Notes under the pieces: model-generated
Databases searched by the model: none
The model's input: only the letters and a program-made list of their open reading frames with translations
What the model was told of the DNA's origin: nothing
Source of the DNA: Escherichia coli
GTDB taxonomy: Bacteria > Pseudomonadota > Gammaproteobacteria > Enterobacterales > Enterobacteriaceae
Length of the DNA stretch: 64,000 bases
Assembly: GCF_003790525.1 (NCBI RefSeq)
Contig: NZ_CP033635.1
Direction: 5' to 3' (one strand)
Translations under genes and position numbers: made by a program
Part shown: positions 14,014 through 49,100 of the stretch, in pieces
Numbering within the stretch: position 1 is the stretch's first letter
Layout: the number at the start of each line of letters is the position of its first letter

Positions 14014-15216
14014 ATGCAAAGTGTTGATGTAGCCATTGTTGGTGGCGGCATGGTGGGGCTGGCGGTTGCCTGCGGCTTACAGGGGAGCGGCTTACGCGTT
14101 GCTGTACTGGAGCAGCGCGTACCGGAACCTCTGGCGGCGGATGCACCACCACAACTGCGCGTTTCGGCTATCAATGCCGCCAGCGAAAAATTACTCACCC
14201 GTCTTGGCGTCTGGCAGGACATTCTCTCTCGTAGGGCCAGCTGTTATCACGGTATGGAAGTGTGGGACAAAGACAGTTTTGGTCACATCTCGTTTGACGA
14301 TCAAAGCATGGGCTATAGCCATCTTGGGCATATCGTTGAAAACTCAGTGATTCACTACGCGCTGTGGAACAAAGCGCAGCAGTCGTCAGATATCACTCTG
14401 TTGGCCCCCGCAGAATTACAGCAGGTCGCCTGGGGAGAAAATGAAACCTTCCTGACGTTGAAAGATGGCAGTATGTTAACGGCGCGTCTGGTGATTGGCG
14501 CGGACGGCGCTAATTCCTGGTTGCGCAACAAAGCAGATATTCCGCTGACTTTCTGGGATTATCAGCATCACGCGCTGGTAGCGACCATTCGCACGGAAGA
14601 ACCGCATGATGCGGTGGCGCGGCAGGTTTTCCATGGCGAAGGCATTCTGGCCTTTTTACCGCTTAGCGATCCGCATCTTTGCTCGATTGTCTGGTCACTG
14701 TCGTCAGAGGAAGCGCAGCGGATGCAGCAGGCAAGTGAAGACGAATTTAATCGCGCGTTAAATATCGCTTTTGATAATCGCCTGGGCTTATGCAAGGTTG
14801 AGAGCGCGCGTCAGGTGTTCCCACTGACGGGGCGTTATGCGCGCCAGTTTGCCGCGCACCGTCTGGCGCTGGTGGGCGACGCCGCGCATACCATTCACCC
14901 GCTGGCGGGGCAGGGGGTAAATCTTGGCTTTATGGATGCTGCAGAGCTGATTGCTGAACTGAAACGGTTGCATCGTCAGGGTAAAGACATCGGGCAGTAC
15001 ATTTATCTGCGTCGCTATGAGAGTAGCCGCAAGCACAGTTCGGCGCTGATGCTGGCTGGTATGCAGGGATTCCGTGATCTGTTTTCCGGTACCAATCCGG
15101 CGAAAAAACTGCTGCGTGATATTGGTTTGAAACTGGCCGACACGCTTCCTGGCGTTAAACCACAACTCATCCGCCAGGCAATGGGATTAAACGATTTGCC
15201 TGAATGGCTGCGTTAA
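14014..15216 (+). CDS. ubiI: 2-octaprenylphenol hydroxylase (FAD-dependent monooxygenase, VisC)
   Basis: 400-aa paralogue of ubiH, VAIVGGGMVGLAVA. Confidence 0.9.
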   Translation: MQSVDVAIVGGGMVGLAVACGLQGSGLRVAVLEQRVPEPLAADAPPQLRVSAINAASEKLLTRLGVWQDILSRRASCYHGMEVWDKDSFGHISFDDQSMGYSHLGHIVENSVIHYALWNKAQQSSDITLLAPAELQQVAWGENETFLTLKDGSMLTARLVIGADGANSWLRNKADIPLTFWDYQHHALVATIRTEEPHDAVARQVFHGEGILAFLPLSDPHLCSIVWSLSSEEAQRMQQASEDEFNRALNIAFDNRLGLCKVESARQVFPLTGRYARQFAAHRLALVGDAAHTIHPLAGQGVNLGFMDAAELIAELKRLHRQGKDIGQYIYLRRYESSRKHSSALMLAGMQGFRDLFSGTNPAKKLLRDIGLKLADTLPGVKPQLIRQAMGLNDLPEWLR

Positions 15217-15258
15217 AAATTTCTCTTCTGTTGTTTATTTGATACCCATCACACTTTC

Positions 15259-15288
15259 ATCTCCCGGTTTTTTCGCCGGGAGATTTTC
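15259..15288 (+). terminator. Rho-independent terminator after ubiI
   Basis: tctcccgg-ttttttcg-ccgggaga hairpin followed by tttt. Confidence 0.5.
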
Positions 15289-15299
15289 CTCATTTGAAA

Positions 15300-15662
15300 T
15301 AAACTAATTTCACCTCCGTTTTCGCATTATATTTTCTAATGCTATGATTTTTTGATTTAGTGTTTTTTGACATTTTTTTAGTTCTTAATATTGCCTTATT
15401 CAAATTAACTTTCTAATGGCATCATCTTTATATAGAAACTAGAGTGTTTTTTGGTTTTTTATTCTGTCGCGATTTTGGCGTTTTTTAACCATAAGCTAAT
15501 GTGATGATCAATTTTACCTTATGGTTAACAGTCTGTTTCGGTGGTAAGTTCAGGCAAAAGAGAACGATTGCGTTGGGGACCGGGAGTGGCTCCGATGCTG
15601 GGTTTCGTGGTGATAATTTCACCATGAAAAGTTGTCAGCCCCGCTTATTCAATGAGGACAAG
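15300..15662 (+). promoter_or_regulatory. gcvTHP promoter and upstream control region
   Basis: About 360 bp AT-rich non-coding DNA upstream of gcvT; in E. coli this region carries the gcv promoter and GcvA/Lrp/PurR/CRP sites (established knowledge; individual sites not resolved here). Confidence 0.4.
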
Positions 15663-16757
15663 ATGGCACAACAGACTCCTTTGTACGAACAACACACGCT
15701 TTGCGGCGCTCGCATGGTGGATTTCCACGGCTGGATGATGCCGCTGCATTACGGTTCGCAAATCGACGAACATCATGCGGTACGTACCGATGCCGGAATG
15801 TTTGATGTGTCACATATGACCATCGTCGATCTCCGCGGCAGCCGCACCCGGGAGTTTCTGCGTTATCTGCTGGCGAACGATGTGGCGAAGCTCACCAAAA
15901 GCGGCAAAGCCCTTTACTCGGGGATGTTGAATGCCTCTGGCGGTGTGATAGATGACCTCATCGTCTACTACTTTACTGAAGATTTCTTCCGCCTCGTTGT
16001 TAACTCCGCCACCCGCGAAAAAGACCTCTCCTGGATTACCCAACACGCTGAACCTTTCGGCATCGAAATTACCGTTCGTGATGACCTTTCCATGATCGCC
16101 GTACAAGGGCCGAATGCGCAGGCAAAAGCTGCCACACTGTTTAATGATGCTCAGCGTCAGGCGGTGGAAGGGATGAAACCGTTCTTTGGCGTGCAGGCGG
16201 GCGATCTGTTTATTGCCACCACTGGTTATACCGGTGAAGCGGGCTATGAAATTGCGCTGCCCAATGAAAAAGCGGCCGATTTCTGGCGTGCGCTGGTGGA
16301 AGCGGGTGTTAAGCCATGTGGCTTGGGCGCGCGTGACACGCTGCGTCTGGAAGCGGGCATGAATCTTTATGGTCAGGAGATGGACGAAACTATTTCTCCT
16401 TTAGCCGCCAACATGGGCTGGACTATCGCCTGGGAACCGGCAGATCGTGACTTTATCGGTCGTGAAGCCCTGGAAGTGCAGCGTGAGCATGGTACAGAAA
16501 AACTGGTTGGTCTGGTGATGACCGAAAAAGGCGTGCTGCGTAATGAACTGCCGGTACGCTTTACCGATGCGCAGGGCAACCAGCATGAAGGCATTATCAC
16601 CAGCGGTACTTTCTCCCCGACGCTGGGTTACAGCATTGCGCTGGCGCGCGTGCCGGAAGGTATTGGCGAAACGGCGATTGTGCAAATTCGCAACCGTGAA
16701 ATGCCGGTTAAAGTGACAAAACCTGTTTTTGTGCGTAACGGCAAAGCCGTCGCGTGA
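15663..16757 (+). CDS. gcvT: Glycine cleavage system T protein (aminomethyltransferase)
   Basis: ORF track 418 aa is an upstream extension; start set at [24 protein letters not shown] (364 aa). Confidence 0.9.
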
Positions 16758-16780
16758 TTTACTTTTTTGGAGATTGATTG

Positions 16781-17170
16781 ATGAGCAACGTACCAGCAGA
16801 ACTGAAATACAGCAAAGAACACGAATGGCTGCGTAAAGAAGCCGACGGCACTTACACCGTTGGTATTACCGAACATGCTCAGGAGCTGTTAGGCGATATG
16901 GTGTTTGTTGACCTGCCGGAAGTGGGCGCAACGGTTAGCGCGGGCGATGACTGCGCGGTTGCCGAATCAGTAAAAGCGGCGTCAGACATTTATGCGCCAG
17001 TAAGCGGTGAAATCGTGGCGGTAAACGACGCACTGAGCGATTCCCCGGAACTGGTGAACAGCGAACCGTATGCAGGTGGCTGGATCTTTAAAATCAAAGC
17101 CAGCGATGAAAGCGAACTGGAATCACTGCTGGATGCGACCGCATACGAAGCATTGTTAGAAGACGAGTAA
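16781..17170 (+). CDS. gcvH: Glycine cleavage system H protein (lipoyl carrier)
   Basis: [20 protein letters not shown], 129 aa; the ORF track started 3 nt earlier at a TTG. Confidence 0.9.
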
Positions 17171-17287
17171 CGGCTTTATTCCTCTTCTGCGGGAGAGGAT
17201 CAGGGTGAGGAAATTTACACCTCACCCTCACTCTCTTCGCAAGGAGAGAGGTTCACAATTCACTGCACGTTTCAGGAACCATCGCTC

Positions 17288-20161
17288 ATGACACAGACGT
17301 TAAGCCAGCTTGAAAATAGCGGCGCTTTTATTGAACGCCATATCGGACCGGACGCCGCGCAACAGCAAGAAATGCTGAATGCCGTTGGCGCACAATCGTT
17401 AAACGCGCTGACCGGCCAGATTGTACCGAAAGATATTCAGCTTGCGACCCCGCCGCAGGTTGGCGCACCGGCGACCGAATACGCCGCGCTGGCGGAACTC
17501 AAGGCTATTGCCAGTCGCAATAAACGCTTCACGTCTTACATCGGCATGGGTTACACCGCCGTGCAGTTACCGCCGGTTATCCTGCGTAACATGCTGGAAA
17601 ATCCGGGCTGGTATACCGCGTATACTCCGTATCAACCTGAAGTCTCGCAGGGCCGCCTTGAGGCACTGCTCAATTTCCAGCAGGTAACGCTGGATTTAAC
17701 CGGGCTGGATATGGCCTCTGCTTCTCTTCTTGACGAAGCCACCGCTGCCGCCGAAGCAATGGCGATGGCGAAACGCGTCAGCAAACTGAAAAATGCCAAC
17801 CGCTTCTTCGTGGCTTCCGATGTGCATCCGCAAACGCTGGATGTGGTCCGTACTCGTGCCGAAACCTTTGGTTTTGAAGTGATTGTCGATGATGCGCAAA
17901 AAGTGCTCGACCACCAGGACGTCTTCGGCGTGCTGTTACAGCAGGTTGGCACTACCGGTGAAATTCATGACTACACTGCGCTTATCAGCGAACTGAAATC
18001 ACGCAAAATTGTGGTCAGCGTCGCCGCCGATATTATGGCGCTGGTGCTGTTAACTGCGCCGGGTAAACAGGGCGCAGATATTGTCTTTGGTTCGGCGCAA
18101 CGCTTCGGCGTGCCGATGGGCTACGGTGGCCCACACGCGGCATTCTTTGCGGCGAAAGATGAATACAAACGCTCAATGCCGGGCCGTATTATCGGTGTAT
18201 CGAAAGATGCAGCTGGCAATACCGCGCTGCGCATGGCAATGCAGACTCGCGAGCAACATATTCGCCGTGAGAAAGCGAACTCCAACATTTGTACTTCCCA
18301 GGTACTGCTGGCAAACATCGCCAGCCTGTATGCCGTTTATCACGGTCCGGTTGGCCTGAAACGTATCGCTAACCGCATTCACCGTCTGACCGATATCCTG
18401 GCGGCAGGCCTGCAACAAAAAGGTCTGAAGCTGCGCCATGCGCACTATTTCGACACTCTGTGTGTGGAAGTGGCCGACAAGGCGGGCGTACTGGCGCGTG
18501 CCGAAGCGGCTGAAATCAACCTGCGTAGCGATATCCTGAACGCGGTGGGGATCACCCTTGATGAAACCACCACGCATGAAAACGTAATGCAGCTTTTCAG
18601 CGTACTACTGGGGGATAACCACGGGCTGGACATCGACACGCTGGACAAAGACGTGGCTCACGACAGCCGCTCTATCCAGCCTGCGATGCTGCGCGACGAT
18701 GAAATCCTCACCCATCCGGTGTTTAATCGCTACCACAGCGAAACCGAAATGATGCGCTATATGCACTCGCTGGAGCGTAAAGATCTGGCGCTGAATCAGG
18801 CGATGATCCCGCTGGGTTCCTGCACCATGAAACTGAACGCCGCCGCCGAGATGATCCCAATCACCTGGCCGGAATTTGCTGAACTGCACCCGTTTTGCCC
18901 GCCAGAACAGGCCGAAGGTTATCAGCAGATGATCGCGCAGCTGGCTGACTGGCTGGTGAAACTGACCGGTTACGACGCCGTTTGTATGCAGCCGAACTCC
19001 GGCGCACAGGGCGAATACGCGGGCCTGCTGGCGATTCGTCATTATCATGAAAGCCGCAACGAAGGGCATCGCGATATCTGCCTGATCCCGGCTTCTGCGC
19101 ACGGAACTAACCCCGCTTCTGCACATATGGCAGGAATGCAGGTGGTGGTTGTGGCGTGTGATAAAAATGGCAACATCGATCTGGCTGATCTGCGCGCGAA
19201 AGCGGAACAAGCGGGCGATAACCTCTCCTGTATCATGGTGACCTATCCTTCCACCCACGGCGTGTATGAAGAAACGATCCGTGAAGTGTGTGAAGTCGTG
19301 CATCAGTTCGGCGGTCAGGTTTACCTTGATGGCGCGAACATGAACGCCCAGGTCGGCATCACCTCACCGGGCTTTATTGGCGCGGACGTCTCGCACCTTA
19401 ACCTGCATAAAACTTTCTGCATTCCGCACGGTGGCGGCGGCCCTGGTATGGGACCGATCGGCGTGAAAGCGCATCTGGCACCGTTTGTGCCAGGTCATAG
19501 CGTGGTACAAATTGAAGGCATGTTAACCCGTCAGGGCGCGGTTTCTGCGGCACCGTTCGGTAGCGCATCCATTCTGCCAATCAGCTGGATGTACATCCGT
19601 ATGATGGGCGCAGAAGGGCTGAAAAAAGCAAGCCAGGTGGCAATTCTTAACGCCAACTATATTGCCAGCCGCCTGCAGGATGCTTTCCCGGTGCTGTATA
19701 CCGGTCGCGACGGTCGCGTGGCGCACGAATGTATTCTTGATATTCGTCCGCTGAAAGAAGAAACCGGCATCAGCGAACTGGATATTGCCAAGCGTCTGAT
19801 CGACTACGGTTTCCACGCGCCGACCATGTCATTCCCGGTGGCGGGTACGCTGATGGTTGAACCGACTGAATCTGAAAGCAAAGTGGAACTGGATCGCTTT
19901 ATCGACGCGATGCTGGCTATCCGCGCAGAAATTGACCAGGTGAAAGCCGGTGTCTGGCCGCTGGAAGATAACCCGCTGGTGAACGCGCCGCACATTCAGA
20001 GCGAACTGGTCGCCGAGTGGGCGCATCCGTACAGCCGTGAAGTTGCAGTATTCCCGGCAGGCGTGGCAGACAAATACTGGCCGACAGTGAAACGTCTGGA
20101 TGATGTTTACGGCGACCGTAACCTGTTCTGCTCCTGCGTACCGATTAGCGAATACCAGTAA
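17288..20161 (+). CDS. gcvP: Glycine dehydrogenase (decarboxylating), P protein
   Basis: 957-aa [25 protein letters not shown]. Confidence 0.93.
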
Positions 20162-20183
20162 TTTACTGATTCGACTATCTTCT

Positions 20184-20206
20184 AAAGGCGCTTCGGCGCC
20201 TTTTTC
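20184..20206 (+). terminator. Rho-independent terminator of gcvTHP
   Basis: aaaggcgc-ttcg-gcgccttt hairpin followed by a T-run. Confidence 0.6.
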
Positions 20207-20326
20207 GCTTGTTAATAAAGTGCGCTTTGTGTGTTTCGGCTGAGGCGTAATATAAAATATTGCGAGCTCAATATATTAAAAGAGTGCCAGGCCTGATGAG
20301 CGGAGCACATCAGGCACATCGGCTAA

Positions 20327-21787
<1,461 letters not shown>

Positions 21788-41120: not shown

Positions 41121-43991
41121 TTATATTTTTTCCAGCGCGGTGAGTATTTTCTCCGGTGTGAAATGCCATTCGCGTAACCAGATGCCGCATGCATCGTGAA
41201 TTGCGATAGCAATCGCCGGAGCTGCGCCATTTACACCGATTTCCGAGATCGATTTCGCCCCGAACGGGCCGACTTTATCGTCGCTCGGCACCAGCACAGC
41301 GCGGAAATCACGCGGAATGTCACCAATTTTCGGTGCGCCGTAACTGCGTAAATCACGCGTTAACGGGTGACCTTCGGCGTCATAAATGATCTCTTCGCTC
41401 ATACTGTGGCCGATAGCTCGCAGAGTGGCACCGTAGATTTGTCCCAACGCTAACTCTGGATTGACCGGTGTACCGCAATCCAGCAAGGCGTAGAATTTAT
41501 CCAGGCGGATTTCACCCGTACGCGTGTTGACGGCAACTTCAGCAAAGTTTGCGCCATACGGGAAGGCGAAATCAGGCGTGATATAACTGCCAGTTCCCAC
41601 CAGTGAACCAAAGCCGGTGCCGGTTTCGCCTTTATGGGCTATCTCTCCGAAACTAACTTCGCCTTTCTTGCCGCGAACGACGCCCGGCGTTGCTAGTTGA
41701 ACATCTGCCACTGGCTCACCCAACATTTGCGCGCCGTGGAACAGGATTTTCTCCCGCAGATTTTCCGCTGCCAAACGCGCAGCGTTACCCGAGAAGCAAG
41801 TACCGGACGAGGCATATGCGCCTTTATCAAACAGTGCATGATCGGTATCACCAGAGATAACATGCACGTCCTGCGGTGGGCAGTGCAGCACTTCTGCTGC
41901 CAGTTTCGTCACCACAGTATCCAAACCAGTACCAATATCCGCACCGCCAGAATGAACGATAAAGGTACCGTCTGATTCCAGTTTGATCATGCAGTTAGCC
42001 TGATCGATATCCGGGATACCCGATTTCTGCATGATAATGGCGACGCCACGACCGATGTGCCAGTCACCGTTTTGTGGTTTTGGTGAAGACCATTGGATCA
42101 TCTCGCGACCCTGACGCAGGATCTCTTCCAGTGCGCAGCTGGCGGCGGAAGGAACGGAGGTCGGCGCTTTACCTTCACCGATTGCACCGAGAATTTTCAG
42201 CTCTTGCCCTTCGTGTACCCGGTTACGTTCGATAATTTCCAGTTGGTCGATCTGTAACTGTTCAGCCAGTTCCGCTAATGCCATGGTGATAGCGAAGTTA
42301 CCTTTCGGTGCGCCATAACCCTGATAAGCACCATTTGGGCAAATGTTGCTGTAGTAGGTGGTGACCTGGAAATCGACGTTATCGCACGGATATAACGGCA
42401 GCGACAGCGCCGGTCCGTTACACGGTACGGTGAGTGAGTGGTTGCCGTAAGGGCCAGTGTTGGCGCGGAAATCCATCTTCACTGCCGTCAGGCGACCATC
42501 TTTTTTCGCTCCCAGTTTGACGGTGACTTTCGCGACGTGACGAGAGGTGTTAGCAATAAACTCTTCTTCACGGGTGTAGCGGAACAGTACCGGACGCCCG
42601 GTCACGCAGGTTGCCCAGGCGCACACTTCTTCCAGCAGGATGTCCTGTTTGGAACCAAAACCGCCGCCAACTCGCTCTTTAATGACATGAACTTTATGTT
42701 GTTTCATGCCCACGAGGCGCGCGACCTGGCGGCGTAAGTGCCATGGTACCTGGGTGGAGGCGTGGATAACCAGACGATCGCCGTCCATACGGGTAAAGCA
42801 GATATGTGTTTCAGTCGGGCACTGCTGCGCCTGCGTTGAGTTATAGGTTCGCTCAATGATCACATCGGCATCGGCAAAGCCTTTGTCCATATCGCCAATA
42901 TGACCATGGATACTGGCAGCGATATTTTTGCGTGGGCGAGAACCGATCGGGAAGTTGATGATCATATGCTCGCCGCGCTGGGCTGCATGGCTGTTATCAT
43001 CTTCCAGAGTATCTGGCGCACCAGCAACATACACCACCGGTTCATCGTGCACCACAGGCGCATCTTCCGCCATTGCCTCGTCAATCGACATTACTGGCTT
43101 AAGCACCTCATATTCAACGTCGATGAGCTTCAATGCTTCGAGCGCAATGTCTTCACTTTCAGCGACGACCGCAGCAACACGATCGCCGACGTGACGCATT
43201 TTCTTGCCGAACATACGGCGGTCAAGCGGTGACGGTTCCGGTGCGCTCTGACCACCCGGGGTATAGTAGATATCTGGGCAATTCAGGTGAGTAATAACGT
43301 GAACGACGCCCGGTAAGGCTTCAGCTTTGCTGACATCCAGATGAGTAATCAGTGCGTGAGCGTGTGGGCTACGTAACATTTTAATGACGCAGGCGTCAGC
43401 CGTTACGCGGTCTTCAACATAGCAGGGTTTCGCCTGCACCATTTTCGCGGCATCAGTTTTAGGATAATGCTTGCCAATGACTTCAAGGTCGTCACGGAAA
43501 GTCGGAGCGATATCAATGGTGGCCTGCGGATTATTTTTACGTGCAACCGCCAGTTCAATGACCTGATAGTATTGCTGCCAGCCAGCATCGCGGCTAAACA
43601 GACCTGAGAGCGCGTCGTCGATCTCTTCGCGGGTAGGTGCGGCGATGCGATCGAGAAGATCGGTGATAATCAGAGCCGCAGCTGGATCGTTATAACCAGA
43701 CTGCACCACGCCAACATCAACCATGGCCTGTTGAACCAGACTTAACTCGTTCCATTTGCCCAGAGATTCTGCGGTACGAATATCTGCCTTCTCTAACTGT
43801 GCGGCAATAAGCAAGGACGCGTTAACGATATTACCGTTAAAGATAATTGCGTCAGAACCGGCAAACCCAAAACCATCATCACTGTTGCGTACAGAGTGCA
43901 TTCCCATGTTAAACAACAGCTTTTGCACGTTTTCGCCTGGATTAACGGTTAGCTCCTGAGGCGCGCCATTTAAAGTAAAGTGGATGATCAT
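41121..43991 (-). CDS. xdhD: Molybdopterin-dependent hydroxylase XdhD (fused 2Fe-2S and Mo-cofactor-binding subunits, xanthine dehydrogenase family)
   Basis: 956-aa ORF MIIHFTLNGAPQELTVNPGENVQKLLF. Confidence 0.88.
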   Translation of the reverse strand: MIIHFTLNGAPQELTVNPGENVQKLLFNMGMHSVRNSDDGFGFAGSDAIIFNGNIVNASLLIAAQLEKADIRTAESLGKWNELSLVQQAMVDVGVVQSGYNDPAAALIITDLLDRIAAPTREEIDDALSGLFSRDAGWQQYYQVIELAVARKNNPQATIDIAPTFRDDLEVIGKHYPKTDAAKMVQAKPCYVEDRVTADACVIKMLRSPHAHALITHLDVSKAEALPGVVHVITHLNCPDIYYTPGGQSAPEPSPLDRRMFGKKMRHVGDRVAAVVAESEDIALEALKLIDVEYEVLKPVMSIDEAMAEDAPVVHDEPVVYVAGAPDTLEDDNSHAAQRGEHMIINFPIGSRPRKNIAASIHGHIGDMDKGFADADVIIERTYNSTQAQQCPTETHICFTRMDGDRLVIHASTQVPWHLRRQVARLVGMKQHKVHVIKERVGGGFGSKQDILLEEVCAWATCVTGRPVLFRYTREEEFIANTSRHVAKVTVKLGAKKDGRLTAVKMDFRANTGPYGNHSLTVPCNGPALSLPLYPCDNVDFQVTTYYSNICPNGAYQGYGAPKGNFAITMALAELAEQLQIDQLEIIERNRVHEGQELKILGAIGEGKAPTSVPSAASCALEEILRQGREMIQWSSPKPQNGDWHIGRGVAIIMQKSGIPDIDQANCMIKLESDGTFIVHSGGADIGTGLDTVVTKLAAEVLHCPPQDVHVISGDTDHALFDKGAYASSGTCFSGNAARLAAENLREKILFHGAQMLGEPVADVQLATPGVVRGKKGEVSFGEIAHKGETGTGFGSLVGTGSYITPDFAFPYGANFAEVAVNTRTGEIRLDKFYALLDCGTPVNPELALGQIYGATLRAIGHSMSEEIIYDAEGHPLTRDLRSYGAPKIGDIPRDFRAVLVPSDDKVGPFGAKSISEIGVNGAAPAIAIAIHDACGIWLREWHFTPEKILTALEKI

Positions 43992-44767
43992 ACGGCTTCC
44001 TCCCCAGCCTGTTGGCAGTCGGCATACAGGTCGGCTACCAGAACTCCCGTGATATAGCGTTTATAGGCCACGCTGCCCCGCAAATCTTCCTGCGGGAAAA
44101 TGGCGTTGGCGACAGCCTGTTCAAGGGCATTGCCTTCCAGATTTTGTTTTTCGACATCGTGCAGACGCAGTGCTTTACTGGCGACGCCATCCAGCGCAAT
44201 TCGCATACCGTCGTGGTCTGTCATTGCAACGGCTGCCGTCACGACGGTTAAACCTGCCTGAGAACGGCTAATTTTGCGGGTCGCACAGGTGCGATACGGA
44301 TCTTTAATGATAATTTCGGTTAACAGGCGATCGCATGGGCAGGCCAGGTAGTCCTCGATTGACAGCGTTTCGCCGTTGCCAAAAACCAGTTCAGCATCCA
44401 GTGCCAGCAGGACGGGAAGCAGCACCGACTCTTCCTGCCGGGCGGCGATTTCACCACCAATGGTCGACTGATTACGAACATGGCGTGAGTAAACAAAACC
44501 GAGAGCTTCACGCAGTGCTGCAGGAATAAATCGTGCATCACGCAGTGACTGCAAGCGAGACATTGCGCCAATTCGTAGTGCACCGTTATCCCAGTCAATC
44601 CAGTCCAGCTCCAGATCCTGCAAGGAAATGGCAATCTTTTTATCGGTACGGGTTGGTGTAGCGTTGAGTTTGCTGCCCCCGGCGAACCAGACGGCTTCAT
44701 CCTGGTAGCGGCGCTTCAGTTCCAGCGCTTGTTCGACAGAGTCGGGTCTGAAAAATTGTTCAATCAT
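43988..44767 (-). CDS. ygfM: FAD-binding subunit of molybdenum hydroxylase (CO dehydrogenase flavoprotein-like)
   Basis: 259-aa ORF; 4-nt stop/start overlap with xdhD. Confidence 0.85.
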   Translation of the reverse strand: MIEQFFRPDSVEQALELKRRYQDEAVWFAGGSKLNATPTRTDKKIAISLQDLELDWIDWDNGALRIGAMSRLQSLRDARFIPAALREALGFVYSRHVRNQSTIGGEIAARQEESVLLPVLLALDAELVFGNGETLSIEDYLACPCDRLLTEIIIKDPYRTCATRKISRSQAGLTVVTAAVAMTDHDGMRIALDGVASKALRLHDVEKQNLEGNALEQAVANAIFPQEDLRGSVAYKRYITGVLVADLYADCQQAGEEAV

Positions 44768-44817
44768 CGTCTTTCCTTAATTTCCCCTCTTCTCTGAAAG
44801 AAGAGGGGAGCTGTTAT

Positions 44818-46146
44818 TTATGCCAGCGCATCCATCCGACGCCACATACTGGCAGCGGCTTTTCTGGCTTGCGCATAAATGGAATCGCAATCGAAGTTAA
44901 ACTGACGGTCTTCATAGACCATCACACCATTGACCATCACGCTGTGAACGCTGCCTGAGCCCATACCGAAAGCGATATGCCCGGCGATATTGTCTGCCAG
45001 CAGCGGCGTTGGCGAGTTGTAATCACAAATGGTTAAATCGGCTTTGTAACCGGCTTCCAGAAGGCCAAATTTCGCGCCAAAGTTGCGGCTCATCAGTTCG
45101 TTGCCGTTAGCCAGTGCTTTGGCAAAACTGTCAGGCCACAGCGGGCCACCCGCATCGCGATGTTTAAAGAAGGCAAATTTCATCTCTTCAAACATGTCCG
45201 AACCAATGCCGTCCGTTCCCAACGCCAGATTGCGGATGTCGCTAAGGTGATGGTTGTAGCCGACATGGTTGTTCATGTTTGAACGGGCGTTATGCACCAG
45301 GAACGCATCGCGCTGATTGAGTAGGGCGATGTCATCTTTCGACAAGTACAGCCCATGAGCGACCAGCGTTTTGCTGTCGATGAGATCGAATTGCGTCAGT
45401 CGTGCCAGTAGGTCTTTGCCGTACCAGTGGTGACTGTAGGAAACGTCGTAAAGGTCTTCCGCAGCGTGAATATGCAAACCACGACCTGTGGTTTTCACGG
45501 CTTCACGCAGCATCTCCAGACCGGCATCCGGCACGGTAAACGGCGCGTGAGCGCCGATATGTGCTTCCACCAGATACGGCTCGGTTGCTGCTTTCTTCGC
45601 CTCATCAATCTGACGGGCGAAGCGGATGTTTTCTTCTACACCTTCCTGCAACTCTTTGATGCCGTTGTTACGGTCAGTAGTTTCAAAACAGGTCATCGCG
45701 CGCAGGCCAACTTTTAAAAATGCGTTGCGCAATGTGGAGAGCGACCCGTCGATATACGCCGGAGAGGCATGGTGATCGATAACCGATGTACATCCGCTCT
45801 TAATCGCTTCCAGGGAACAAATCAGTCCGCTGTAATAGAGCGACTCTTCATCAAGGGCGCGATCGAGCCGCCACCAGAGATTTTTCAGCGTTGAGATGAA
45901 ATCCGGGCAGGGGGCGATATTTGCCATAATTCCGCGGGAAAGCCCCGAGTAAAAATGGTTGTGCGAGCAGACAATCCCAGGCATCACAATCCGGCCATGC
46001 ATCTCTTTGTAGCTGGCATCGGGGTAGCGTTGCGTCAGGGCATCGCCGATAGCGACAATCACATCATTTTCGATGGCGATATCAACGCCTTCCTGCACTT
46101 TCGCCGGGTGTAACTGCACTGCGGTGACATTCTTCAGAATCAACAT
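44818..46146 (-). CDS. ssnA: Amidohydrolase-family protein SsnA (chlorohydrolase/aminohydrolase-like)
   Basis: ORF track 464 aa; trimmed to MLILKNVTAVQLHPAKVQEG (442 aa). Confidence 0.85.
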   Translation of the reverse strand: MLILKNVTAVQLHPAKVQEGVDIAIENDVIVAIGDALTQRYPDASYKEMHGRIVMPGIVCSHNHFYSGLSRGIMANIAPCPDFISTLKNLWWRLDRALDEESLYYSGLICSLEAIKSGCTSVIDHHASPAYIDGSLSTLRNAFLKVGLRAMTCFETTDRNNGIKELQEGVEENIRFARQIDEAKKAATEPYLVEAHIGAHAPFTVPDAGLEMLREAVKTTGRGLHIHAAEDLYDVSYSHHWYGKDLLARLTQFDLIDSKTLVAHGLYLSKDDIALLNQRDAFLVHNARSNMNNHVGYNHHLSDIRNLALGTDGIGSDMFEEMKFAFFKHRDAGGPLWPDSFAKALANGNELMSRNFGAKFGLLEAGYKADLTICDYNSPTPLLADNIAGHIAFGMGSGSVHSVMVNGVMVYEDRQFNFDCDSIYAQARKAAASMWRRMDALA

Positions 46147-46148
46147 GA

Positions 46149-49100
46149 TTACACCTCCACGCGGCCCAGCAGATAATGATGATGCTGGTGGACATGGCTG
46201 ATGATACGGCACATATCGTTCAGCTCCGGTGGTACGTTGTTGAACTGACCTTCGCTGTCGATGTTTAACACCCAGCTTTGGTTATTCAGACGTACGCGTA
46301 CCCGGCAATCTTCCACAAGGAAGCCTGGGTTGCTGCTGTTATCAAAGTCTTGCGACAGGCTGAAGACGGTGATTTTGTCTTTGTACGGTTTACCGTTCCA
46401 CGGGCAGAATTGGGCGCAGTTGCCGCATTCGTTGCAGTAGGCATCGAGATGCAGCGTCTGGAAACGGTTCTGGAAGCCAGGAACCGCAATGGAGACGTTG
46501 GCGCGGTTCGGGCAGACATCCACACACTTGCTGCAAACGTAGTTACATTCAAGGCAGCGTGCGGCTTCCTGGGCGACAAACGCGTCACGATCGTCACTGT
46601 TCACCAGAGTGATAGAGATATCGCCTTTACGTTGATAGATTTCCGCCGGATTGACGTTGTTCCAGTATTTATCGTTCTGGTGGGAACGGATATTTTCCCG
46701 ACTCAGGATTGCATCGGTCGCCCGACGCGCGGTTCCGACAGCAGCGACAATGGAGGATGGTCCGCGCTGTACGTCGCCGATCATAAAGACGTCAGTCAGA
46801 CGCGTTTCGCCATTATGGTCGACGTCTGGCCAGCCGTTTTTGTCCAGCGGCACGCCCATTGCATTCAGGGCTTCAGTATCCTGCTGTTCACCAATGGCGG
46901 TGATCAGGCTGTCTACATGCAGCGTTACTGTTTCGTTGGTTTCAACCGGACGGCGACGACCTTTCTCATCAGGTTCGCCAAGCGACATAACGCGCAAGGT
47001 TAAGGTGCCATCAGCATCGAAACGTTCCGGATTATTCAGAAAACGGAACTCCACGCCGTCGTGCAACGCTTCTTCATACTCTTCGCGCCATGCTGGCATC
47101 TCTTGCAGTGAACGACGGTAAACGACCGTTGCTTTTTCTACGCCTGGAACGCGTAACGCCGCACGAGCGCAGTCCATTGCGGTGTTACCCGCCCCGACAA
47201 CGACCACATGTTTGCCCAGCTTGAGCGCGGTGCCCTTGTTGTATTCACGCAGGAAGGGGAGTGATTTCCAGACATTTTGGTTGTCGCCCGCCAGTTTCAC
47301 ACCGCTATTTTTATCGGTACCGGTGGCAATCAGAACATAGTGGAAGCCCTGATTTTTTAACTGTTCGACGGTCAGATCCGGTGAGCAGCCATACTCAAAT
47401 TTCACGCCGTGAGCGGCAACAAAATCGATATCGTGCTGAATTAACTCTGCAGGAATACGGAACTGAGGAATGATATTTTTCACCACGCCGCCCGCATTGG
47501 CTTCGCGTTCAAACAGCGTAACCGGATGGCCCGCTCTGGCAAGGAAGTAACCTGCTGCCAGACCCGCCGGACCTGCACCAATCACGGCAACCGGATGGCG
47601 TGAACCAGAACCGGCTGGTTTGTGCCAGCGTTGCTTATATTCATCCCAACCTTTTTCCAGCGCGACTTTTTTCAGTTCGCGGATATTCAGCGCACTGTCG
47701 TAATCCAGGCGAGTACAGTTGTATTGGCACTGGTGATCGCAAATATGACCGGTAATGGCGGGCAGGGCGTTTCGTTGATAGATGAGTTCCAGCGCGTCGG
47801 CATAGCGGTGTTCGCCAAGCAGACGGATGTATTCCGGAATATCTTGCTTGATAGCGCAGGCAGTAACACAGGGGGCAACGTAGCAATCGGTCAGCGGCAG
47901 GTCTTCAGCCACTTCAATACGCTCTTCTGGCTTCCAGTGTTTCTGGGTGTATTCCATGGTTAACGCATCTGCTGCCAGTCTGTTCAGTCGTTCGACGTCA
48001 ACATGGTCAAGTCCCCAGGCGTTGGAGCCTTCCAGCTCGCGCATGCAGGCACTTAAGCGCAGATAGCCGCCAGGTTTCAGCAGGTCGGTTGCCATAGTAA
48101 TAGGGCGAATACCAGTATCAAAAATATCGCGGATAGTCAGCTGACTGGCACCACCGGAATAAGAAATGGGCAGTTTGCCGTCAAAGGCGCGAGAGAGAAC
48201 TGCTGCAACGTTGATGGAGAGCGGGAACAGCGCACGGCCTGACATATACATCTCTTCACCAGGCAGTGCGCCTTTATTGTTGATGGTGCCGAGAGTGTTA
48301 GTCAGTTTTACGCCAAAGCCGAGTGATTTTTCTTTTGCCAGTGCCATCAGGCGTTCCAGCATTTCCAGCGCTTGCGTCAGCTTGAGGTCGTGATCAAATG
48401 ACTCTTCTTTTAAGCCTATGTAACCGAAACCGCAGACATCAAGGATCTCACGAACACGCGCGTACCCCAGTAAGGTCGGGTTGAGTTTCACAAAGGTATT
48501 GAGCCCTTTTTCTTCCAGCATGTAGCGGCAAATGGCTTCGATTTCATGCGGAGGACAGCCGTGCATGGTGGAGAGGGTAACACCTTGTACCATGCTGGTG
48601 GGGATGCGAGCGGGTAAGGCTTGCAAGCTTTCGCGTTTTTCCTGTAAGCCGTGGCGGGCTAAAAATGCCTCATCCTGGAGTAGCTTATTAAGTGCATCGC
48701 GGTATTGAGCGAATTTCGGATGGTCAGATGCGTCCATCATATTGTCGATGAACTGCTGCATCGGCGGTTGCTTAATACCTTCGAGGTTGTAACCGACGCT
48801 CATATTAAAGATGAACGATTTACCGGAATCAGAAGGCTGGAACATCGCTTCGAGAAGGTGCAGGGCAAACCAGGCTTTGAGGTATTCATCCCAGGCTTTA
48901 AGCAGGGTAAATTCGGTAGACCATTCGGTGTTAAAGCACTCGTCTTCGGCATCGATACAGGGCTTTTCCAGCTCCAGGCGGTCAAGAATTTGGACGGTTT
49001 TTAGTTCGATGAAGCGTCCGCCAGTCAGCCAGGAAGTGACAATATTTTGCGCGAGCTGCGTGTGCGGGCCAGCGGCAGGGCCGACGGGAGTGGCACAGGT

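Follow-up and report, generated by a model that had tools for sequence, protein, structure and literature searches.

The DNA analysed here is a stretch of 64,000 nt from Escherichia coli, in the following designated the window. It carries the gcvTHP operon on the plus strand (Table 1). Gene identities were taken from a RefSeq O157:H7 record with 100% identity to the window. The gcvH stop codon TAA occupies positions 17168-17170 and the gcvP ATG begins at 17288, which leaves exactly the 117-nt intercistronic spacer delimited in the preliminary description. Of the 5426 complete E. coli genomes compared by blastn with these 117 nt as query, 5425 contain the spacer, each as a single copy with at least 92% identity. 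It lacks a σ70-like site, so that an internal gcvP promoter was dropped from consideration. A small ORF that starts at GTG 17205, comprises 28 codons and ends in an ATGA overlap with gcvP in O157 was also rejected, because a 1-nt loop insertion in K-12 and most other strains shifts its frame into an early TAA. A 45-aa ORF on the minus strand (17094-17231) is without support.

Table 1. Features of the gcvTHP operon and the gcvH-gcvP spacer (positions in the window)
Feature	Position	Strand	Properties	Basis
gcvT	15663..16757	+	first gene of the gcvTHP operon	identical O157:H7 RefSeq record (offset 13170); ORF list
gcvH	16781..17170	+	129 aa; its mRNA is the stabilised one	ORF list; RefSeq record
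gcvH-gcvP intercistronic spacer	17171..17287	+	117 nt	fold z = -4.7
Degenerate head-to-head BoxC (PIT/TMECO) pair, assigned by sequence	17178..17252	+		covariance model; unit HMM
Hairpin 1	17180..17199	+	UCCUCUUC-UGCG-GGAGAGGA; 8 bp including one G-U; -11.8 kcal/mol; CCCTCTCCC/GGGAGAGGG stem of BoxC unit 1	RNAfold; alignment to covariance model
Central hairpin	17202..17228	+	AGGGUGAGG-AAAUUUACA-CCUCACCCU; 9 bp, mismatch-free; -15.3 kcal/mol; formed by the GGGTGAGGG 'third strands' of both inverted BoxC units; proposed exonuclease block	RNAfold
Hairpin 3	17231..17250	+	CUCUCUUC-GCAA-GGAGAGAG; 8 bp including one G-U; -10.6 kcal/mol; stem of BoxC unit 2 (inverted); absent from the stable 3'-trimmed RNA	RNAfold
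Dominant RNA 3' end, K-12-homologous position	17232	+		transferred from BW25113 and MG1655 Term-seq by alignment
Unstructured gcvP leader	17258..17287	+	ATTCACTGCACGTTTCAGGAACCATCGCTC; conserved; SD-like AGGA at 17274-17277
gcvP	17288..20161	+	957 aa; downstream cistron with lower stability and abundance

RNAfold predicts three hairpins in the spacer, among which the central one is the most stable. The three tandem hairpins of the preliminary description are therefore real, although the stem/loop boundaries of hairpins 1 and 3 had been placed one base off. The entire spacer has a minimum free energy (MFE) of -44.2 kcal/mol compared to -28.9 +/- 3.3 kcal/mol for 200 dinucleotide shuffles, none of which was as stable. 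The reverse strand folds nearly equally well (z = -4.3). The hairpin region is one long imperfect palindrome with 29-nt arms that are 72% complementary. For this reason, an alternative fold is possible, which appears in the centroid and local MFE predictions and is nearly isoenergetic: the two outermost arms, 5' of hairpin 1 and 3' of hairpin 3, form a stem that encloses the central hairpin. An Rfam scan of positions 15000-21000 with E-values up to 10 yielded only chance-level matches and none at the gathering threshold, with MIR5516 (21.7 bits, threshold 93) and whalefall-1 (19.8 bits, threshold 37) as best overlaps.

The gcvP leader at the 3' end of the spacer has column identities between 0.63 and 1.0 in 38 Enterobacteriaceae, irrespective of the repeat located upstream. 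Its AGGA, 10 nt 5' of the ATG, is the sole SD-like core before gcvP, and the designation of the gcvP SD as weak was roughly right. It can be asked if the structure acts mainly on translation, in that ribosomes finishing gcvH are uncoupled from gcvP and P-protein synthesis is kept low, with the weak and distant SD as a second factor. The modest SD and the strong conservation of the leader that bears it would fit such a role, and a structured gap of 117 nt rules out translational coupling. However, both SD and start codon are located outside all three hairpins. A predicted leader hairpin that touches the SD is weak and is broken by a T-to-C variant (CTG to CCG) of many genera, and was rejected as an SD-sequestering element. 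Moreover, the difference between gcvH and gcvP is already measurable at the mRNA level (see below). A translational role is consequently considered very unlikely.

By its sequence, the palindrome from which all three hairpins originate is identified as a degenerate head-to-head BoxC (PIT/TMECO) pair. BoxC is a dispersed repeat family with 23-32 copies in K-12 and without an accepted function; its consensus and pair architecture were used here as defined by Holder et al. (2015). A covariance model trained on three K-12 BoxC pairs from unrelated loci matched the palindrome over its full length with 35.8 bits (E = 4.5e-6). This was the top match in 128 kb searched; the next unrelated match had an E-value of only 0.018. 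When an HMM built from 23 K-12 BoxC units was run against both strands of the 64 kb, the two best matches were the two spacer halves, 17189-17210 on the plus strand (E = 0.012) and 17251-17221 on the minus strand (E = 4.1). The two units are arranged head-to-head. The strict consensus CCCTCNCCC-N3-6-GGGNGAGGG-N3-GGGNGAGGG (Holder et al., 2015) has no match in the window, even if 3-4 nt are permitted for the second loop, and the relaxed 20-mer GGGNGAGGNNNNGGGTGAGG matches once in the window, at 17191-17210, with 0.07 matches expected by chance. In the published scheme, a pair combines a type A unit with a TTA loop and a type B unit with a CCG loop (Holder et al., 2015). The E. coli gcvH-gcvP copy has ATCA and TCA as diagnostic (second) loops instead, which assign its units to neither type. 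The corresponding loops are TTA/TAA in one Escherichia relative (L003) and CAG or CCG plus TAA in Enterobacter and Pseudocitrobacter. In blastn searches, the gcvH-gcvP copy, which is intergenic, finds only itself at one place per E. coli genome. A blastn-detectable dispersed repeat was thus discarded, and the repeat nature emerged only from the relatives and the profile models. The REP consensus (e.g. ...GCTTATCCGGCCTAC) is absent from the E. coli spacer. In the preliminary description, the element had not been recognised as a copy of a known dispersed repeat.

The junction was compared in 80 species, sampled outside Salmonella, Klebsiella, Shigella and the other named Escherichia species, and hairpins in their spacers were located by a perfect-stem scan. 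Canonical BoxC pairs occupy the orthologous position in Enterobacter, Pseudocitrobacter, Buttiauxella, Siccibacter and Pluralibacter. All BoxC matches in the relatives' gcv loci (255-277 kb) are found inside this spacer and mostly begin 5-10 nt 3' of the gcvH stop codon. Other genera carry unrelated repeats: REP patterns are present in Citrobacter, Lelliottia, Trabulsiella and some Enterobacter, and ERIC sequences in C. youngae, C. koseri and Kluyvera. These repeats match the standard REP2-I and ERIC1R/ERIC2 primer sequences. Sister genera differ in their repeat family, and such differences occur even inside a genus, e.g. Enterobacter or Pluralibacter. Despite this change in sequence family, some stable hairpin is found at the junction in all 38 sampled Enterobacteriaceae. 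Terminator-like junction hairpins followed by a T-run also occur in distant Enterobacterales and marine γ-proteobacteria (Photorhabdus, Providencia, Serratia, Dickeya, Yersinia, Pantoea, Shewanella and Idiomarina). These are expected to act by termination and not as a block to decay. Hairpin-free spacers of 23 and 8 nt are found in Erwinia and Rosenbergiella, respectively; therefore, the structure is dispensable for the operon. A dedicated gcv RNA motif with conserved sequence was rejected: the spacer varies between 8 and 445 nt in the 80 species and, except for its last ~30 nt, cannot be aligned outside Escherichia.

Pairing is better conserved than expected by chance. Across the relatives, 93.5% of the pair cells are paired compared to 85% in shuffles. 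Changes on both sides were found for 20 of 28 pairs, a number matched by none of 500 shuffles, and slid controls yielded only 6-8 such pairs. Covariation across relatives had been suggested as a check in the preliminary description, and it came out in favour of conserved pairing. Within E. coli, five of the six columns that vary among six alleles are located in loops, and the sole stem change converts a G-C into a G-U pair. K-12 and O157 spacers differ only in loops. In one E. coli strain, VTB96775v, part of the spacer has undergone an inverted duplication.

These data bear on the question if the element is anything more than a selfish or neutral BoxC copy in decay, which landed in one of the rare long stretches of non-coding DNA and whose effect on the mRNA, if any, is an unselected by-product. 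A family without accepted function, a gcv copy that has lost the strict consensus, the presence of unrelated REP or ERIC sequences in sister genera and within genera, and an inverted duplication as expected of an unstable palindrome are all in agreement with this view. Yet, while canonical BoxC loci are often deleted or mutated across E. coli strains (Holder et al., 2015), the gcv copy is almost universal in the species. Furthermore, compensatory changes maintain its stems across genera, the variation within the species is concentrated in loops, every sampled enterobacterial spacer has kept a stable hairpin, and Salmonella retains differential expression with another repeat. Hence, a purely neutral insertion appears rather unlikely.

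An effect at the DNA level was also considered: the BoxC pair might fold into a cruciform or an intrastrand triplex, with disturbed replication and local rearrangement as the consequence. Triplex formation in vitro was observed for canonical TMECO oligonucleotides, whose loci vary more from strain to strain (Holder et al., 2015). The similar folding of both strands and the duplication in VTB96775v, which illustrates that the locus is able to rearrange, point in the same direction. By contrast, triplet matching in the degenerate gcv copy (CCTCTTC / GGAGAGG / GGGTGAGG) is shortened and interrupted; with shortened arms, a weaker triplex or none would be expected. The locus is unusually stable in E. 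coli. In addition, a canonical copy was unprotected upon DMS probing in vivo, and purine-motif triplexes do not form in RNA (Holder et al., 2015). Taken together, a function as DNA structure is extremely improbable.

Published transcriptome data, all of which were obtained in K-12 strains and not with the O157 sequence of the window, provide an RNA phenotype for the junction. Dar and Sorek (2018; PMC5927463, S3 Table) listed gcvH/gcvP as a 'differentially decaying' operon pair with a stabilised upstream gene. The half-life ratio was 2.21 +/- 0.02 and the steady-state mRNA ratio 5.03 +/- 1.33 (PMC5927463). In the Moffitt data quoted in the same paper, the half-life ratio is just 1.42. Term-seq in BW25113 revealed a 3' end at 3042456 with an upstream sequence ending in ...GGGTGAGGAAAATTTATGCCTCACCCTCACT, and the central hairpin was entered as the protective fold (PMC5927463, S6 Table). 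The same 3' end was found independently in MG1655 at 3,049,097 on the minus strand (Adams et al., 2021; PMC7815308), which corresponds to position 63 of the K-12 spacer. With a score of 412,219 compared to 36,065 at the gcvP/operon terminator, i.e. 11 times as much, it is the strongest 3' end in the operon (PMC7815308). Transferred to the window, this end is located 5 nt downstream of the CCUCACCC arm of the central hairpin and 4 nt past the last paired base, 17228. As it lies inside the 5' arm of hairpin 3, the stable RNA retains no more than the first two hairpins. Term-seq 3' ends are also associated with at least five other BoxC hairpins, in four cases 3-5 nt and in one ~10 nt downstream. 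In Salmonella, where the 3' end follows a REP hairpin, gcvH mRNA likewise exceeds gcvP mRNA with a ratio of 2.64. One proteome table contains GcvT and GcvP at similar levels; GcvH is not part of this table. The suggestion of the preliminary description that an mRNA structure sets the H:P ratio or serves RNase processing or stability is supported by these half-life and mRNA ratios and by the two Term-seq 3' ends.

A transcriptional origin of this 3' end has to be weighed as well. The central hairpin and the pyrimidine-rich UCACUCUCUU might cause partial pausing or termination, either intrinsic or aided by Rho/NusG, and the H:P ratio might be established mainly in this way. Such an event would be compatible with the decay model. 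The mRNA ratio of 5.0 exceeds the half-life ratio of 2.2 (1.4 in the second data set) and leaves room for a transcriptional part. Term-seq is blind to the distinction between termination and processing, and the junction 3' end is the dominant one in the operon. Moreover, the genera from Photorhabdus to Idiomarina listed above have a hairpin with T-run, a classical terminator or attenuator, at the same position. However, all three E. coli hairpins lack the U-tract, as had been noted from the beginning. They are followed by AUCAGGG, UCACUCUC and GUUCACAA, respectively, and no terminator-like site was called on the plus strand between 16500 and 17800. Differential decay was called only after removal of junctions that contain an intrinsic-terminator motif or are known for strong Rho termination (Dar and Sorek, 2018; PMC5927463), and neither gcvH nor gcvP was found in the Rho-termination table of Adams et al. 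(PMC7815308). In earlier reporter work, PIT/BoxC sequences displayed neither promoter nor terminator activity, and no general tie to gene regulation was seen (summarised in Holder et al., 2015). Therefore, termination is an unlikely main determinant of the ratio.

The most probable explanation is that the BoxC-derived spacer structure acts as a 3'-protective block to decay, by which the upstream gcvT-gcvH message is stabilised. According to this model, a decayed and internally shortened inverted BoxC pair would have been inserted ~8 nt past the gcvH stop codon. The mechanism would be selective RNA processing and stabilisation, for which the malE-malF REP was the first example. The polycistronic transcript would first be cut endonucleolytically further downstream, probably within the gcvP leader, which is conserved and single-stranded. 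A strict RNase E motif (RN|WUU) is absent between the mapped 3' end and gcvP; the RNase E-like sites at 17250, 17257 and 17269 are all of the relaxed kind. Subsequently, 3'-to-5' exonucleases would strip the weaker hairpin 3 and stall at the G+C-rich central hairpin, and a gcvT-gcvH RNA ending 5 nt beyond this hairpin would be left. It is the position of the 3' end that points to the central hairpin as its cause. The resulting RNA would outlive gcvP sequences about 2-fold and accumulate to an about 5-fold higher level, so that more message for H- than for P-protein is available. A half-life ratio of either 2.2 or 1.42 falls short of a 5-fold mRNA ratio, and a second process probably contributes, for example partial termination or polarity caused by Rho within the weakly translated gcvP.

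In the glycine cleavage system, H-protein serves as the shuttle substrate and has to be more abundant than the enzymes P, T and L. Hence, more gcvH than gcvP message from one promoter is physiologically sensible, and the resulting gcvH/gcvP ratio may be what selection maintains. The proposed protective function at gcvH-gcvP has already been published; the present finding is correct in this regard, but not new. The assignment to BoxC and the repeat turnover at the junction are small additions. For annotation, this means that a hitherto unannotated spacer can be labelled as a putative BoxC-derived 3'-protective structure with a mapped RNA end. BoxC, which has been called functionless or a source of genome instability, would provide a REP-like mRNA-end function here and apparently at several other loci, and different repeat families appear to stand in for one another at this junction. 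A farther-reaching proposal, towards which we are slightly more sceptical than inclined, is that functional replacement has occurred repeatedly at the junction. The ancestral state would be a terminator-like hairpin, as still seen in Yersinia, Serratia, Photorhabdus, Dickeya and Shewanella. In Enterobacteriaceae, its place would have been taken by any palindromic repeat that happened to insert there (BoxC, REP/BIME or ERIC), each retained for a 3' hairpin by which gcvTH message survives longer than gcvP. It would follow that the BoxC family as a whole acts as exonuclease blocks or 3'-end determinants of E. coli transcripts.

The E. coli element can be compared with four kinds of known structures. 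With the inverted BoxC pairs of K-12 (hrpB-mrcB, fepB-entC, ygfF-gcvP, alx-sstT) it shares the intergenic site, the pyrimidine arm, purine arm and GGGTGAGG block in the same order on each side, and the pairing of the two GGGTGAGG blocks of head-to-head units into a central hairpin. It differs in its arms, which are shorter and in part altered (CCTCTTC/GGAGAGG and CTCTCTT/AGGAGAG), and in the common centre of ~28 nt, which is cut to 9-10 nt. Moreover, it is not listed among the 23 K-12 copies of Holder et al. (2015), and it is located inside an operon, whereas only one listed copy is (pstA-pstB). The REP/BIME-containing spacers of Salmonella and Citrobacter and the ERIC-containing spacers of C. 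youngae, C. koseri and Kluyvera share the junction and the conserved gcvP leader with E. coli, but belong to unrelated repeat families without homology to the E. coli element 5' of the leader. The terminator or attenuator hairpins from Photorhabdus to Idiomarina are also G+C-rich and start 4-20 nt after the gcvH stop codon, before gcvP. In contrast to the E. coli structure, they are single, trailed by a T-run and not derived from a repeat. The closest functional parallel would be the malE-malF REP and other cases of differential operon decay: a stable intercistronic hairpin without U-tract, an RNA 3' end a few nt past this hairpin, and an upstream gene that is longer-lived and more abundant. 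Here, however, the hairpin originates from BoxC and not from REP, and while most protective structures in the set of Dar and Sorek (2018) are located within the downstream coding region, the gcv structure is intergenic.

The window is E. coli O157:H7-like: An O157:H7 RefSeq chromosome is 100% identical across the gcvH-gcvP spacer, with gcvT, gcvH and gcvP annotated around it and the gap itself without annotation. A preliminary description had given the spacer as 17171-17287, containing three hairpins without a U-tract and preceding gcvP with a weak SD. All of this agrees with the present analysis. The coordinates are exact: 17170 is the last base of the gcvH stop codon and 17288 the first of the gcvP ATG. 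Three adjacent stems are folded (see table), and the spacer MFE of -44.2 kcal/mol is 4.7 SD below dinucleotide shuffles, none of which (0/200) was equally stable. No U-run follows any of the three stems and a terminator scan of the + strand found no match. The sole SD-like core ahead of gcvP is AGGA, 10 nt from the ATG. As none of the hairpins reaches this SD, a translational role of the structure lacks support.

Features of the gcvH-gcvP spacer and related matches (window coordinates)
Feature	Position	Strand	Properties
Intercistronic spacer	17171-17287	+	117 nt
Hairpin 1	17180-17199	+	8 bp, loop UGCG, -11.8 kcal/mol (RNA folding)
Central hairpin	17202-17228	+	9 bp, no mismatch, loop AAAUUUACA, -15.3 kcal/mol (RNA folding)
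Hairpin 3	17231-17250	+	8 bp, loop GCAA, -10.6 kcal/mol (RNA folding)
BoxC unit, HMM match	17189-17210	+	one half of the spacer
BoxC unit, HMM match	17251-17221	-	other half of the spacer
BoxC pair, best CM match	17178-17252		full-length, 35.8 bits, E = 4.5e-6
mRNA 3' end, transferred from K-12	17232	+
Conserved gcvP leader	17258-17287	+	ATTCACTGCACGTTTCAGGAACCATCGCTC
Next CM match	44783-44860		core 44784-44812, E ~0.02, CCCCTCTTC-TCTGAAA-GAAGAGGGG

The hairpin region is a single long imperfect palindrome with 29-nt arms. For this reason, an alternative nested fold, in which the paired outer arms enclose the central hairpin, is about isoenergetic with the three-hairpin fold. The complementary strand of the spacer folds almost equally well (z = -4.3). 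Palindrome and reverse-strand folding together indicate a DNA-level palindrome, not a strand-specific RNA motif.

The gcvH locus was taken from 80 GTDB species and the gcvH-gcvP spacers were extracted. Rosenbergiella (8 nt) and Erwinia (23 nt) have the shortest ones, and those of Serratia marcescens (locus L073; 319 nt) and a Providencia MAG (L077; 445 nt) are unusually long. They are not orthologous sequence and fall into four groups by content. REP/BIME units (…GCTTATCCGGCCTAC…) occupy the spacer in Citrobacter, Lelliottia, Trabulsiella and some Enterobacter. The second group (C. youngae, C. koseri, Kluyvera and others) has an ERIC element, recognised by its match to the standard ERIC1R/ERIC2 primer sequences. 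In the third, comprising Enterobacter cloacae, E. asburiae, Pseudocitrobacter, Buttiauxella, Siccibacter, Pluralibacter gergoviae and several further Enterobacteriaceae, the spacer reads CCCTCTCCC-loop-GGGAGAGGG-N3-GGGGTGAGGG … CCCTCACCC-TAA-CCCTCTCCC-loop-GGGAGAGGG, the canonical BoxC-pair architecture. More distant taxa form the fourth: Most spacers outside Enterobacteriaceae have one G+C-rich hairpin 4-20 nt past the gcvH stop codon followed by a T-run and are terminator-like, as in Pantoea, Photorhabdus, Providencia, Serratia, Dickeya, Pectobacterium, Yersinia, Shewanella and Idiomarina. The mutual replacement of BoxC, REP, ERIC and terminator-type hairpins between gcvH and gcvP is a small addition to the cited literature.

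The BoxC pattern was found by a literature search from the undegraded spacers of relatives. BoxC, later designated PIT element or 'TMECO' intrastrand-triplex motif, has the consensus CCCTCNCCC-N3-6-GGGNGAGGG-N3-GGGNGAGGG, and at five K-12 loci two units lie inverted to each other (Holder et al., 2015; PMC4666352). PMC2267715, too, names BoxC among the families known from E. coli. The E. coli spacer has the architecture of the undegraded Enterobacter cloacae-type pattern. When an HMM built on the 23 published K-12 BoxC units was searched against both strands of the window, the two best matches were the two halves of the spacer, head-to-head. The best match of a CM derived from three K-12 pairs at unrelated loci (fepB-entC, ygfF-gcvP, alx-sstT) spans both halves, and its runner-up is the reverse strand of the same site, as a palindrome predicts. 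The strict published BoxC pattern does not match the spacer element. By these profile tests, with the strict consensus failed, it belongs to the family as a decayed BoxC pair. Compared to canonical BoxC, its arms are changed to CCTCTTC/GGAGAGG and CTCTCTT/AGGAGAG, ATCA and TCA form its second loops, and the centre, ~28 nt in K-12 pairs, is cut to 9-10 nt. Internal shortening of inverted BoxC pairs to simple stem-loops is known as 'palindrome effect' (Holder et al., 2015; PMC4666352). The spacer copy is missing from the list of 23 K-12 copies because it is degenerate; blastn with the spacer yields one match per genome only. A role as a DNA triplex is unlikely, since this copy is too degenerate and RNA is reported not to adopt purine-motif triplexes (Holder et al., 2015; PMC4666352).

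The loops of hairpins 1 and 3 (17187-17192 and 17238-17243) fit extra-stable tetraloops, C(UGCG)G of the UNCG type and C(GCAA)G of the GNRA type. Hairpin 3 of K-12 has C(GUAA)G, likewise GNRA, and hairpin 1 of a related Escherichia (L003) C(UUCG)G. Tetraloops are not a trait of canonical BoxC loops; they may hint at RNA-level selection or be a coincidence. The next CM match in the window is a hairpin in a 50-nt gap between the co-directional minus-strand ORFs 44818-46212 and 43988-44767, which may be a second BoxC-like intercistronic stem or due to chance.

Pairing is kept among relatives, as the covariation analysis proposed in the preliminary description revealed. In their loci (255-277 kb), all HMM and CM matches fall inside the gcvH-gcvP spacer and mostly start 5-10 nt past the gcvH stop codon. 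This location suggests either a single old insertion or a strongly preferred site. In a model-guided alignment of these matches, which is fitted to the CM, includes both palindrome strands and contains non-independent E. coli alleles, 93.5% of the pair cells hold standard pairs vs. 85.0% in column shuffles, and 20 of 28 pairs have both-sided changes, a number reached in 0/500 shuffles. Sliding the partner by 1-3 columns lowers pairing to 53-70% and both-sided changes to 6-8 pairs. A purely neutral decaying repeat is unlikely on several grounds: The spacer is found in 5425 of 5426 complete E. coli genomes (identity at least 92%), stems stay paired while loops vary, and some hairpin is kept at the junction in 38/38 Enterobacteriaceae; by contrast, canonical BoxC loci show frequent deletion from strain to strain (Holder et al., 2015; PMC4666352). 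Six distinct E. coli alleles vary in six columns, five of which belong to the loops of the central hairpin and hairpin 3 (Fisher p ~0.004, small sample); the sole change in a stem turns G-C into G-U. Between K-12 and the window, all differences are in these two loops. In strain VTB96775v (NZ_CP178634.1; L087 226-395), the spacer measures 170 nt (MFE -94 kcal/mol) and contains an inverted copy of the hairpin-3/central-hairpin segment that creates a perfect 31-bp hairpin. This insert resembles the outcome of template switching at the palindrome.

The last ~30 nt of the spacer are near-invariant in 38 Enterobacteriaceae, whatever repeat lies upstream. This conservation extends well beyond the needs of a 4-nt SD; an RNase cleavage site, a protein or sRNA binding site and a standby site are candidates. 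RNase E-like sites in this leader are relaxed ones only. In the O157 sequence (17197-17291), a GTG at 17205 preceded by GAGAGGA opens a 28-codon frame ending in an ATGA overlap with the gcvP start. A 1-nt loop insertion breaks this frame in K-12 and most E. coli strains, so that it is probably no gene. The ubiI-gcvT intergenic region, i.e. the gcv control region, encodes on the opposite strand a 27-aa hypothetical protein according to RefSeq annotation (O157:H7 record L001 2119-2202; ~window 15289-15372, minus strand).

In K-12 (L082 4403-4668), an inverted pair of canonical BoxC units (TMECO 10/11) and ygfF are located between the gcvP terminator and bglA, and the K-12 gcv operon is therefore bracketed by BoxC-type elements. 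Both are absent from the window (20162-20326), where bglA directly follows the gcvP terminator (aaaggcgcttcggcgccttttt). Of 56 strains, 28 lack the TMECO 10/11-ygfF region (Holder et al., 2015; PMC4666352).

The proposal that the structure sets the H:P ratio or acts as a processing or stability element is borne out by published K-12 data. Using rifampicin mRNA decay and Term-seq 3'-end mapping, Dar and Sorek (2018; PMC5927463) list gcvH/gcvP as a differentially decaying pair with stabilised upstream gene (S3 Table), a half-life ratio of 2.21 +/- 0.02 (1.42 from the data of Moffitt et al.) and a steady-state mRNA ratio of 5.03 +/- 1.33. Their S6 Table ('E. coli 3' protective structures') contains a 3' end with the upstream sequence CTTTATTCCTCTTCTGCGGGAGAGGATCAGGGTGAGGAAAATTTATGCCTCACCCTCACT and the central hairpin as protective fold. 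Adams et al. (2021; PMC7815308, Supplementary file 1) report an 'orphan' 3' end at MG1655 3,049,097(-) with a score of 412,219; the gcvP terminator in the adjacent row has 36,065. This is K-12 spacer position 63 (gcvH end 3,049,160), so both Term-seq sets, the kind of mapping that had been proposed, give the same nucleotide. Transferred by alignment, it lies 5 nt beyond the CCUCACCC arm, 4 nt past the last paired base 17228, within the 5' arm of hairpin 3. Therefore, the stable RNA consists of gcvT-gcvH with hairpins 1 and 2 and has lost hairpin 3; the RNA 17171-17232 folds with -28.2 kcal/mol.

We infer that the central hairpin causes this end. The gcvTHP transcript would be cut endonucleolytically downstream of the hairpins, with the conserved single-stranded gcvP leader as obvious candidate for the first cut, and 3' exonucleases would pass the weaker hairpin 3 and stall at the stronger central one. 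The main rival, compatible with this decay model, is partial termination setting part of the H:P ratio. The mRNA ratio is 5-fold and the half-life ratio 2.2-fold, so a transcriptional component is plausible and would account for a share of the ratio; against it, Adams et al. (2021; PMC7815308) have no gcvH or gcvP entry in their table of Rho termination. A further 'internal' 3' end at MG1655 3,048,758(-), ~283 nt into gcvP and roughly at window 17570 (score 29,767, Rho dependence 'No'; Adams et al., 2021; PMC7815308), may mark an intermediate in the decay of the unstable gcvP segment.

A text search of the table in PMC7815308 found Term-seq 3' ends 3-5 nt past other BoxC stems at MG1655 847200(-), 3781065(+), 3959467(-) and 4231270(-), and ~10 nt downstream of a fifth at 632098(+). 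These ends suggest a general part of BoxC hairpins in defining or protecting RNA 3' ends, similar to REPs. Published supplementary tables already give the gcvH-gcvP structure together with its 3' end and the effect on mRNA stoichiometry, and none of this will surprise a specialist; the 3' ends after other BoxC hairpins and, judged by sequence, the origin of the protective structure as a BoxC remnant are small additions to the cited literature.

In Salmonella, the gcvH/gcvP mRNA ratio is 2.64, with the 3' end located after a REP hairpin (Dar and Sorek, 2018; PMC5927463); its sequence matches the retrieved Citrobacter-type spacers. Thus, the function is kept despite a different repeat. The gcvH-gcvP product fits the malE-malF model, a downstream cut followed by exonuclease stalling, and the spacer element works like REP-type 3' stabilisers, in whose class it is explicitly listed (Dar and Sorek, 2018; PMC5927463).
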